Assembly (NCBI GenBank): GCA_046704665.1
Contig: JBJKRJ010000007.1
Coordinates: forward strand, 3,024 to 67,023
Origin: Thermoplasmata archaeon
Lineage (GTDB): Archaea; Thermoplasmatota; Thermoplasmata; Lutacidiplasmatales; UBA184
Reading direction: 5' to 3'
Length of the DNA stretch: 64,000 nt
Part shown: one piece after another, positions 262 through 42,144 of the stretch
Position numbering within the stretch: position 1 is the first letter of the stretch
How the letters are laid out: every line of letters starts with the position of its first letter
Translations under genes and position numbers: made by a program
The notes under the pieces: model-generated
What the model saw: only the letters and a program-made list of their open reading frames with translations
What the model was told of the DNA's origin: nothing
Database searches by the model: none

Positions 262-1204
262 GCTCACGATCCCTGCGCAGGAGCTCGTCTACTCCGGCCA
301 CGCGGCCTGCCCGGGATGCGGGGCGGCGCTCGCGATGCGCCTGCTCCTGAAGGGGCTCGGCCCGCGAACGATCGTCTCGATTCCCGCCTGCTGCTGGACC
401 GTGATCGGGACGCCGTACCCGACGACCGCGCTCAAGGTCGGCGTCCTGGACAACGCCTTCGAGGCGACCGGCGCCTCGATCTCCGGCCTTCGGGCGGCCG
501 CGGACGCGATGGGGTTGAAGGACGTCAACATCGTCGGATGGGCCGGAGACGGAGGCACGGCCGACATCGGCCTCCAGGCGCTGAGCGGGATGCTCGAGCG
601 CCGCACCAATGCGATCTACGTGATGTACGACAACGAGGCCTACATGAACACCGGCATCCAGCGGAGCGGGGCGACGCCCAAGGGTGCCTGGACGACGACG
701 ACGCCGACCTCGGGAGAGACGCGAGGGAAGGCCGAGCCGAAGAAGGACATGATGGGGATCGTGCTCGCCCATCGACCGGCCTATGCGGCGACCCTGAATC
801 CGAGCTACCCGGAGGACTTCGACCAGAAGGTCGAGCGCGCCCGCGACATCGTCGGTCCCCGGTTCCTGCACGTCTTCGCCCCGTGCCCACCGGGCTGGAA
901 GTTCGATTCCGCTCAGACGATCGCCCTGGGGCGTCTCGCGACCGACACCGGGGTCTTCCCGCTGTACGAAGTCATCGACGGCCGTCTCCGGATGACGCGG
1001 AAGACCGGGGAACTCAAGCCGGTCTCCGAGTACCTCACCGCCCAGGGTCGGTTCCGCCACCTCACGGCCGAGGAGATCGCCGAGCTCCAGACCCGCGTGC
1101 GAGAGGAGTGGGAGGCCCTGCTCCGGCGGGAACGCGAGGACCTGAGCCGCGCGATGAGCCCTACTCCCGTCGTACGTATGGTCTCGGCAGCGACCGCTAA
1201 ATAG
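254..1204 (+). CDS. porB: Pyruvate/2-oxoacid:ferredoxin oxidoreductase beta subunit (TPP-binding)
   Basis: GHAACPGCG, GDGG..DIGLQALSG, YDNEAYMNTGIQRS and PCPPGW motifs. Confidence 0.93.
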   Translation: MAKLTIPAQELVYSGHAACPGCGAALAMRLLLKGLGPRTIVSIPACCWTVIGTPYPTTALKVGVLDNAFEATGASISGLRAAADAMGLKDVNIVGWAGDGGTADIGLQALSGMLERRTNAIYVMYDNEAYMNTGIQRSGATPKGAWTTTTPTSGETRGKAEPKKDMMGIVLAHRPAYAATLNPSYPEDFDQKVERARDIVGPRFLHVFAPCPPGWKFDSAQTIALGRLATDTGVFPLYEVIDGRLRMTRKTGELKPVSEYLTAQGRFRHLTAEEIAELQTRVREEWEALLRREREDLSRAMSPTPVVRMVSAATAK

Positions 1205-1227: not shown

Positions 1228-1330
1228 AGCGGGGTAGGGTAGTCAGGAAAACGGTCGGCCAGCTCGACCGTCCTGAAATCCCGACGGGCTCATAACCCGT
1301 AGATCCATGGTTCAAATCCATGCCCCGCTA
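1228..1330 (+). tRNA. Initiator tRNA-Met(CAT) with a 28-nt intron (1250-1277) in the D-loop
   Basis: Acceptor AGCGGGG/CCCCGCT (A1-U72); anticodon arm ACGGG-CTCATAA-CCCGT with 3 consecutive G-C pairs; T arm CATGG-TTCAAAT-CCATG; D-loop interrupted by a hairpin with bulge-helix geometry. Confidence 0.92.
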
Positions 1331-41829: not shown

Positions 41830-41932
41830 GCAGGTGTAATCTAGTGGCAGGATGTCAGCCTTCCAAGCTGACCACCCGGGTTCGAATCGGCCGGACCGAT
41901 CGCGTCCGGCCGCGGAGCTCCCGGCACCTGCA
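41830..41932 (+). tRNA. tRNA-Gly(TCC) with a 32-nt intron (41887-41918) at position 59/60
   Basis: Acceptor GCAGGTG/CACCTGC; anticodon arm TCAGC-CTTCCAA-GCTGA; T stem CCGGG/CCCGG; T-loop TTCGAA|T split by a hairpin forming a strict BHB. Confidence 0.92.
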
Positions 41933-41996
41933 TCCGCCGCGTCGCGGGCTCTTCCGGCGGAGGGCTTAATCGGTGGGACCCGGTCCCGGGGCCCGC

Positions 41997-42080
41997 GCTG
42001 AGGTAGCCTAGTCCGGTAAGGCGCCAGCCTTGAAAGCTGGTGGCGGTCTCGCCTCGGGAGTTCAAATCTCCCCCTCAGCG
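41997..42080 (+). tRNA. tRNA-Ser(TGA)
   Basis: Acceptor GCTGAGG/CCTCAGC; CCAGC-CTTGAAA-GCTGG; long variable arm; GGGAG-TTCAAAT-CTCCC; discriminator G. Confidence 0.95.
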
Positions 42081-42144
42081 CCCCCGGTGTCTCCGCCCCC
42101 TCCCGAGGCTGTTATAGGCCAAGGTCGGGTCGACCGACCGGACC

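Follow-up and report, generated by a model that had tools for sequence, protein, structure and literature searches.

A relaxed-motif D-loop intron in the sole initiator tRNA-Met gene found in a Thermoplasmata archaeon assembly

The window analyzed here is a 64,000-nt stretch of DNA from an uncultured Thermoplasmata archaeon of the Lutacidiplasmatales (GenBank assembly GCA_046704665.1, contig JBJKRJ010000007.1), designated G000:C7:3024-67023, where G000 is the source genome and C numbers are its contigs; other G, L, f and g numbers are our labels for genomes, loci, families and genera. Reading of the sequence places an initiator transfer RNA (tRNA-Met) gene at 1228-1330 on the forward strand, 103 nt in length and including a 28-nt insert (1250-1277) in the D-loop at position 20a/21. 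It is the sole initiator-type tRNA found in the assembly. We think it likely that the insert is a real intron in an essential tRNA, removed by the resident tRNA splicing endonuclease (EndA), with the exons joined by RtcB. The original prediction for this DNA had proposed that an initiator tRNA-Met is interrupted at 20a/21 by a non-canonical D-loop intron, and every coordinate and the intron boundary hold in the sequence.

The interrupted gene and its splice motif

Three marks identify archaeal initiator tRNA-Met, namely A1:U72, a run of three G:C pairs at 29-31/39-41 and the anticodon CAU, and all are present in 1228-1330. The acceptor stem (1228-1234 with 1323-1329) opens with A1:U72 and is followed by a discriminator read from the sequence as A1330, the anticodon stem ACGGG/CCCGT supplies the three G-C pairs, and CAT occupies 1291-1293. 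The remainder of the molecule is complete: U8 is present, the variable loop is 5 nt, and the T-stem CATGG/CCATG carries the T-loop TTCAAAT. The 5' strand of the D-stem, GGGT (1237-1240), pairs with TCCC at 1279-1282 through three G-C pairs plus U13.U22. The 5' exon (1228-1249) comprises the 5' strand of the acceptor stem, U8 and A9, the 5' strand of the D-stem and the D-loop as far as A20a. After the intron (1250-1277), the 3' exon (1278-1330) begins with A21 and continues through the 3' strand of the D-stem, the anticodon arm, variable loop and T-arm to the 3' strand of the acceptor stem and the discriminator A. The 28 nt are absent from intronless orthologs in the same family and order. Because both junctions are runs of A, cuts 1-2 nt further left or 1 nt further right would be equally possible and leave an identical product.

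The elements of an archaeal splice site are arranged around a 4-bp central helix, formed by the exon nucleotides C17 A17a G18 G19 (CAGG, 1244-1247) and the intron strand CCTG (1272-1275). At the 5' splice site, AAA (1248-1250) is cut after its second base and forms a true 3-nt bulge that separates this helix from an inner hairpin (1251-1271). The hairpin pairs 1251-1258 with 1264-1271 around the loop 1259-1263, as 7 bp (1251-1257 with 1265-1271) plus G1258.U1264. The AAA at the 3' splice site (1276-1278) is likewise cut after its second base, but is one strand of a 3x3 internal loop rather than a bulge; the loop is closed by the D-stem and becomes 4x4 if U13.U22 is counted. The opposing strand, A14 G15 U16 (1241-1243), faces the 3' splice site unpaired and separates the D-stem from the central helix. 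These three bases lack standard pairing to 1279-1281 in helical register, and are also unpaired in the minimum-free-energy fold save for an optional U1243-A1276 pair. The structure therefore has what defines the bulge-helix-bulge (BHB) class: four base pairs in the central helix and, on each strand, a splice site two bases 3' of it. It is not a strict hBHBh' motif, as the 3' site lies in the 3x3 internal loop and the outer helix is not stacked on the central one. The HBh' class is described as having one intact bulge between the central and inner helices with the other site disrupted (Kaneta et al., 2018; PMC5829648). Since 1241-1243 are unpaired opposite the 3' splice site, the motif is of this relaxed HBh' form, and the earlier description of it as resembling a bulge-helix-loop (BHL) rather than a strict BHB was right in substance.

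The RNA is predicted to fold at minimum free energy into a cloverleaf with an extended D-arm hairpin (-49.2 kcal/mol; z-score -5.77; 0/200 shuffles as stable). In the register of this fold A1248-U1271 replaces A1251-U1271 and U1243-A1276 also pairs, an arrangement near-equivalent to the one above. When 1250-1277 are deleted in silico, ARAGORN recognizes a 75-nt tRNA-Met(cat), while the unspliced 103 nt return no gene. Intronless orthologs are 74-75 nt long with the same exons, and the spliced D-loop (window 1241-1250) equals that of one of them (L031) bar one loop position. The initiator genes of intronless sister genera (L179-L182) have UCA or UUA at positions 20, 20a and 21, where interrupted genes have AAA. 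The three A's thus go with the intron, as expected of bulge bases.

The source assembly amounts to 2.37 Mb in 69 contigs, with 68% G+C and 93.85% completeness; size and composition agree with the description of the order as having about 69% G+C and genomes of about 2.1 Mb (PMC9287336). The initiator anticodon arm GGGCTCATAACCC occurs once in the 69 contigs. The two other tRNAs with a CAT anticodon, one on contig C48 with a canonical intron and one on C60, have G1:C72-type acceptor stems and no GGG/CCC stem. As this is the only initiator gene found, the cell must process the relaxed motif, and here the original prediction, that the lineage has to splice such a motif in an essential tRNA, is borne out.

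Conservation and distribution among Thermoplasmata

The interrupted genes of relatives were aligned (31 genes, 28 distinct sequences). Their exon helices are invariant or nearly so: in the 5' exon only A9/G9 and U16/C16 vary, the three G-C pairs of the D-stem are unchanged in 28/28 distinct sequences, and the 3' exon of the source is 100% identical to the 3' part of intronless genes in genera g21, g23 and g24. The inner hairpin has changed on both sides in seven of nine aligned pairs, with 94.4% of cells still paired. A covariation score of 0.100 was obtained for the whole structure; this was reached by 0/500 shuffles, and fell to 0.054 or less when partners were slid by 1-3 columns. A wider set of 80 listed species loci gives a similar picture. 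The four pairs of the central helix form in 77/80 (CAGG/CCTG in 71, TAGG/CCTA in five and a version with a G.U pair in one), the other three having one mismatch. The 5' bulge is AAA in 78/80 and the 3' strand AAA in 77/80, in introns of 27-40 nt with 70 distinct inner hairpins. CAGG/CCTG and TAGG/CCTA are a compensatory exon-intron change between lineages. Near-invariant exons around a variable insert that keeps its pairing, bulges and helix point to purifying selection on the splice motif, not decay.

These patterns bear on the idea that the insert is retained, either in a decaying pseudogene or in a tRNA whose D-arm is enlarged. Standard finders fail to recognize a tRNA here and the sequencing runs listed for the locus include no RNA run, both of which would fit such a locus. 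However, this is the sole initiator gene of the genome and the only form in 34/36 genomes of the genus, and an insert that varies yet preserves its pairing, bulges and 4-bp helix between near-invariant exons is not what decay would leave. A working tRNA needs G18-G19 for contact between the D- and T-loops, and the central helix sequesters both. Retention of the insert is accordingly very improbable.

How far does the interrupted gene extend? Full-length matches of 88-96% identity occur in 33 of 36 other genomes of the same genus (a set that includes the unpublished G019), and one more match is ended by a contig end. The remaining two genomes, 67% and 75% complete, have no initiator gene at all. 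An intronless-type match was found in none of the 36. An intronless initiator elsewhere, together with a lack of spliced product, had been named as evidence that would overturn the intron, and the search for such a gene turned up none in the source genome or in these 36. Outside the genus the gene also occurs without the intron: within the same family, the 75-nt genes of genera g21, g23 and g24 are intronless and their exons differ from those of the source in two D-loop bases only (four loci), and families f2 and f3 of the same order have intronless initiator genes. The intron recurs at the same site in families f5, f11, f22, f23, f24 and f25 of the class (L033, L183-L185, L187, L188, L190). 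In a sample of 301 class genomes, 37 match over the whole 103 nt: 27 of the genus including the source, two of genus g22 and eight of other families. A further 13 matches start at query position 44 or 45 and so include the intron strand of the central helix; three were inspected and all three have the intron. These counts include the unpublished G019, G140 and G247, and 37 further matches in the sample are not listed.

A pattern scan of GTDB species representatives, accepting any stretch of 17-47 nt between G19 and the D-stem, found at least 119 with a D-loop insert. Among the 80 listed loci nearly all are titled Thermoplasmata archaeon, including UBA184, a 'Candidatus Lutacidiplasmatales' metagenome-assembled genome (MAG) and AcS/SubAcS isolates, and three are titled Methanomassiliicoccales. 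One locus (L084), on the 3041-bp contig JASIAO010000353.1, is an archaeal interrupted initiator tRNA in a bin labeled Acidobacteriaceae bacterium, most likely as a binning contaminant.

That case is a reminder that MAGs can be chimeric, and the insert could in principle be an artefact of assembly or binning. The same architecture in at least 119 species representatives, from many projects and in part on contigs of over 1 Mb, makes this scarcely credible. DNA support was also sought in Logan contigs of four DNA runs from one study, which may include the source sample. A 466-nt contig of run X3 spans 1100-1291 with 0 differences, and other contigs of these runs hold variant inner hairpins from related strains. 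None of the contigs joins across the insert. Absence of the insert from the reads had been the other finding said to undo the intron; the insert is present in independent contigs.

The initiator tRNA is interrupted at other sites elsewhere in the class. In L186 (G055) it has only a T-loop intron at 59/60, and in L187 (G099) and L188 (G118) both D-loop and T-loop introns are present, in genes of 153-159 nt. Canonical 37/38 introns of 26-50 nt follow CAUA in the anticodon loop in L040, L042, L048, L049 and L050. These last resemble the D-loop intron in that the same tRNA of the same class is spliced by protein, but differ in position and in that the anticodon stem, not the D-loop, provides the basis of the motif. 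One tRNA interrupted at the D-loop, at 37/38 or in the T-loop in different families of Thermoplasmata offers material for the study of intron gain and loss.

The splicing endonuclease and known systems

The domains PF01974 and PF02778 each match twice in a single 354-aa frame on contig C25 (L051:718-1779), in the order N-C-N-C, and there is no further match to either in the genome at E<=1 that could represent a second endA gene. In the C-terminal unit, Tyr, His and Lys stand at the columns of Y295, H303 and K334 of the fused Methanopyrus kandleri enzyme (fMKA), residues reported to be catalytic by mutation (PMC5829648). In the N-terminal unit Tyr is replaced by Leu and His by Pro, so that the triad is found only in the C-terminal unit. 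The predicted architecture is a two-repeat homodimer (alpha'2). The best match among solved structures is the fused beta-alpha M. kandleri enzyme (5x89; 1e-27, query 10-340). The Thermoplasma acidophilum structure 2ohc matches only the last 87 residues; this EndA is not the Thermoplasma form. The ligase RtcB is also present, as a gene split over two contig ends (G000:C65:5-790 on the minus strand and G000:C5:1-642 on the plus strand), and because of this split contigs C65 and C5 probably adjoin in the genome.

Broad specificity has been linked to three insertions in EndA: L1, the Crenarchaea-specific loop (CSL); L2, the ARMAN-specific loop (ASL), named after the archaeal Richmond Mine acidophilic nanoorganisms (ARMAN); and L3 (PMC5829648). 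The catalytic repeat of the source EndA is collinear from end to end with M. jannaschii EndA (1a79, without loops), with indels of only 1, 1 and 2 residues. In a study that grafted the CSL into Archaeoglobus fulgidus EndA (AFU), the loop replaced E174-L178, EKGDL (PMC3241643). The source RVGDR aligns to AFU EKGDL (residues 174-178) without gaps, and this turn is of the same length in the source enzyme and in 27/27 extracted long-type orthologs. As far as can be judged from alignment, EndA appears to lack the L1/CSL, L2/ASL and L3 insertions.

EndA takes two forms in the class. Most families have a long one, of about 350 aa and with a full-size N-terminal repeat, while f15 and f20 have a short Thermoplasma-like form that matches only over the last ~87 residues. 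Across 30 Thermoplasmata genomes compared, 27 have the long form (L174-L177, L191-L213; 35-68% identity over the full length) and three the short (L178 in G054, L214 in G186 and L215 in G133). The long form occurs in 15/15 genomes with a D-loop intron in the initiator tRNA and in 12/15 without, and the three short-form genomes are without the intron. This comparison is a description rather than a test, its groups having been set by one tRNA in related, non-independent genomes.

The original prediction took the relaxed motif to imply an unusual splicing endonuclease, for which the sequence gives no support. Its proposed check, to find endA and look for CSL- or ASL-type loops, yields one endA gene without such loops, and the single enzyme is ordinary by sequence, with no CSL/ASL/L3-like insertion. 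EndA orthologs of the same length are found also in relatives with an intronless initiator tRNA. A more elaborate version is that EndA is functionally unusual, either with its specificity broadened by substitutions without an inserted loop or in working with an accessory factor, so that relaxed D-loop introns and many other non-canonical introns could spread. This deserves weight, since HBh' motifs have to be cut in the only initiator tRNA of the cell and in two other tRNAs, and the genome holds 13 T-loop introns as well. The enzyme also differs from the Thermoplasma and A. fulgidus form by its full-length N-terminal repeat and its best match to M. kandleri 5x89, all 15 compared genomes with the intron have the long form, and the CSL-site turn bears two arginines (RVGDR) where AFU has EKGDL. 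Yet no insertion of the L1, L2 or L3 type is seen, the turn is no longer than in the orthologs, and the 12 genomes with a long enzyme and no D-loop intron in the initiator tRNA, together with the non-independence of the genomes, blunt the association of form with intron. A link between basic residues in the turn and the intron was considered and rejected, as G105 and the f5 genomes have the intron with one Lys only and G037 has His and Arg but no initiator intron. On balance, a functionally unusual enzyme seems rather unlikely.

Reviews describe non-canonical introns as having co-evolved with loop insertions in EndA, and one presents the euryarchaeal alpha4 and alpha2 enzymes as cleaving only canonical BHB motifs (Fujishima and Kanai, 2014; PMC4033280). 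In its account Korarchaeum, with a specific-loop enzyme, is the only alpha2 archaeon with non-canonical introns; the source lineage would be a further alpha2-type case, without the loop. The closest precedent is the pre-tRNA-Glu(UUC) of M. kandleri, interrupted at 20b/21 by an HBh' intron in a host whose EndA lacks a specific loop (Kaneta et al., 2018). Its cleavage is described as inefficient in vitro, with mature tRNA present in vivo according to RNA-seq cited there (PMC5829648). Both are euryarchaeal tRNAs with a relaxed HBh' D-loop intron, one position apart, and an EndA without a specific loop. However, the M. kandleri enzyme is reported to be an (alpha-beta)2 heterotetramer whereas that of the source is a single two-repeat polypeptide, and the M. 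kandleri tRNA is an elongator that also has a canonical intron, its non-canonical one being the only such intron of the genome, while the tRNA of the source is the sole initiator. Such introns had been called typical of Crenarchaeota, Thaumarchaeota and ARMAN in the original prediction, which overlooked the euryarchaeal M. kandleri case (PMC5829648). In Aeropyrum pernix pre-tRNA-Thr(UGU) a D-loop intron is likewise reported to be removed by EndA alone, with no guide RNA or modification (Hirata et al., 2011; PMC3241643). There, however, the motif is a canonical BHB and the enzyme has a CSL with a needed Lys44, whereas the source EndA has no CSL (PMC3241643). Thermoproteales, ARMAN-2 and Korarchaeum resemble the source in having many tRNA genes interrupted outside 37/38, some with two introns (PMC4033280, PMC3239211), and 59/60 T-loop introns are described for ARMAN-2 pre-tRNA-Cys and pre-tRNA-Pro (Fujishima et al., 2011; PMC3239211). 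These hosts are described as having (alpha-beta)2 or epsilon2 enzymes, or alpha2 with a specific loop, in contrast to the loop-less source enzyme (Fujishima and Kanai, 2014; PMC4033280). No report of such introns in Thermoplasmata was found in the literature searched, a search whose scope left out supplements and most subscription journals, and the main text of the Lutacidiplasmatales paper has 0 occurrences of 'intron'.

With a loop-less enzyme and a relaxed motif, how might the initiator precursor be processed? In the reading we prefer, the gene is functional and the only one for initiator tRNA-Met in a GC-rich Thermoplasmata archaeon, and would be transcribed from its own TATA-like promoter into a 103-nt precursor. 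In this RNA the D-loop nucleotides C17-A17a-G18-G19 would pair with the intron CCUG to give the 4-bp central helix. The 5' site (A1249/A1250) would lie in a canonical 3-nt bulge between this helix and the stable inner hairpin, and the 3' site (A1277/A1278) two bases 3' of the helix, in the 3x3 internal loop closed by the D-stem. The two-repeat homodimeric EndA would cut both sites and RtcB would join the exons, releasing a normal 75-nt initiator tRNA. A strong inner hairpin, a helix and bulges that do not vary, and a D-stem standing in for the outer helix may suffice for cleavage, and the folded tRNA body (U8-A14, G15-C48) could keep the opposite strand at a distance. Beyond being tolerated, the intron probably has no function.

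Several observations weigh against this account. Both A. fulgidus EndA and the fused M. kandleri EndA are reported to process the 20b/21 HBh' intron inefficiently, with most cuts at the bulge (PMC5829648). Wild-type A. fulgidus EndA, which shares the subunit type of the source enzyme, is described as hardly cutting a D-loop BHB intron, and a BHL mini-helix remained uncut (PMC3241643). The minimum-free-energy register gives no 4-bp helix, so thermodynamics alone would not favor the 4-bp register in the naked RNA. At 93.85% completeness, a second initiator gene in the missing part is possible from this genome alone. Among the sequencing runs listed as containing the stretch there is no RNA run, and that splicing occurs is something we infer, as is the part given to the D-stem and tertiary contacts in the 3' cut.

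A more general proposal can be offered only tentatively, and we place it somewhat below even chances: that a class-level radiation of Thermoplasmata with a long, two-repeat, loop-less EndA splices relaxed D-loop introns, the sole initiator tRNA included, and bears a load of non-canonical introns like that of Thermoproteales. If so, the rule that loop insertions allowed the disruption of tRNA genes would not be general. The enzyme would then have an intrinsically broad specificity, or the folded tRNA body would help it to recognize the 3' site. Recognition of the mature domain has so far been described for the eukaryal and Nanoarchaeum enzymes. For enzymology, an essential tRNA that depends on cutting of a relaxed motif by a loop-less, homodimer-type EndA would make this lineage a natural test case.

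Further interrupted tRNAs, detection and gene surroundings

The initiator is one of about 20 interrupted genes among about 45 tRNA genes in the genome, with about 16 non-canonical introns, totals that are approximate and were obtained without tRNAscan-SE. T-loop introns were sought with a script requiring TTCRAN after a T-stem, then an insert followed by the T-stem partner strand, and an acceptor that matches. Of its 15 candidates, two were discarded as chance matches in coding DNA; the other 13 make convincing tRNAs, each interrupted at 59/60 by 26-38 nt (Arg-TCG, Gly-TCC, Arg-TCT, His, Ala-GGC, Lys-TTT, Asp, Gln-CTG, Ser-GCT, Asn, Glu-CTC, Ser-GGA and Ser-CGA). One of these lies in the window: a tRNA-Gly(UCC) with a 32-nt intron at 41830-41932 on the plus strand (C7:44853-44955), 64 nt 5' of a tRNA-Ser(UGA) at 41996-42083. 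It has a strict hBHBh' motif built on the T-stem, with a TTCG/CGGA helix and bulges AAT and GCT. ARAGORN in default mode leaves it uncalled, and Rfam matches only its 5' part, with 28.5 bits. The others are at C1:23470-23570, C16:22430-22539, C16:88734-88841, C16:30686-30791, C40:8855-8997, C43:68201-68305, C52:98075-98181, C57:5556-5670, C60:11065-11168, C63:6805-6906, C66:28707-28824 and C68:104821-104940. With the insert removed in silico, ARAGORN gives the expected anticodon for 12/13; the thirteenth, Lys, carries a second insert in its D-loop. As a group the T-loop introns are near-strict hBHBh', with the T-stem as outer helix and both bulges of 3 nt. Their central helix has four pairs in seven cases and three in six, the mismatch being A57.G in five and C56.C in Asn. 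RF00005 matches in three relatives hint that truncated matches of this T-loop-intron kind may be fewer there than in the source genome.

Two more tRNAs have D-loop introns with a relaxed motif. That of tRNA-Arg(GCG) (C43:755-863, minus strand) is about 34 nt with a GUAG/CUAC helix, and that of tRNA-Lys(UUU) (C40:8855-8997, plus strand), the gene with the additional T-loop intron, has a UAGG/CCUA helix. The D-loop borders of both were inferred from the BHB rule only. Fixing those of tRNA-Arg(GCG) by brute-force deletion was abandoned, as ARAGORN accepted 359 different deletions.

A first script for T-loop introns, based on the acceptor and T-arm, returned 336 matches, mostly false, and the best of the simple IUPAC patterns tried for T-loop introns in relatives recovered 12/13 true sites among 41 matches, too unspecific for use. 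Calls of ARAGORN -i such as C43:48990, C50:3665 and C68:22768 were regarded as false positives, and the counts exclude them. For the initiator gene itself, ARAGORN in default mode makes no call at 1228-1330, and with introns allowed reads exactly those 103 bases as 'tRNA-Phe(gaa)', with a spurious 13-nt intron. Rfam cmscan returns no match at the gathering threshold. In E-value mode it gives a mis-registered match at 1257-1330, which starts inside the insert and scores 25.9 bits against a cut-off of 29. A whole-genome RF00005 search scores 42.3 bits at C7:4252-4351 (window 1229-1328), over model positions 2-69. Routine finders thus miss or mislabel the gene, and genomes of this kind seem to lack an initiator tRNA and a third of the tRNA set. 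In a lineage abundant in soil and sediment, the missed tRNAs also affect MAG quality criteria based on tRNA counts.

The initiator gene is placed in a 245-nt gap, with an open reading frame for a thiamine pyrophosphate (TPP) enzyme (porB-like, 254-1204) on one side and, on the other, a minus-strand glycosyltransferase gene whose stop is at 1450. A TATA-like box, CTAAATAG (1197-1204, plus strand), lies about 24-31 nt 5' of +1 and overlaps the stop codon of the porB-like frame. A/T-rich boxes of the TAAATA, CATATA or TTATA types are found at a comparable upstream distance in 30 loci of the genus, and the box at 1197-1204 is likely to be an archaeal promoter.

Canonical 37/38 introns are present in five tRNAs of the genome: Leu-TAA, Trp, Tyr, the CAT tRNA on C48 and Glu-TTC. 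The last, tRNA-Glu(UUC) at C48:38911-39009 on the minus strand, has a 24-nt intron and the anticodon loop CCTTCGA. It apparently has C33 in place of the near-universal U, and this C33 pairs with the intron in the central helix.

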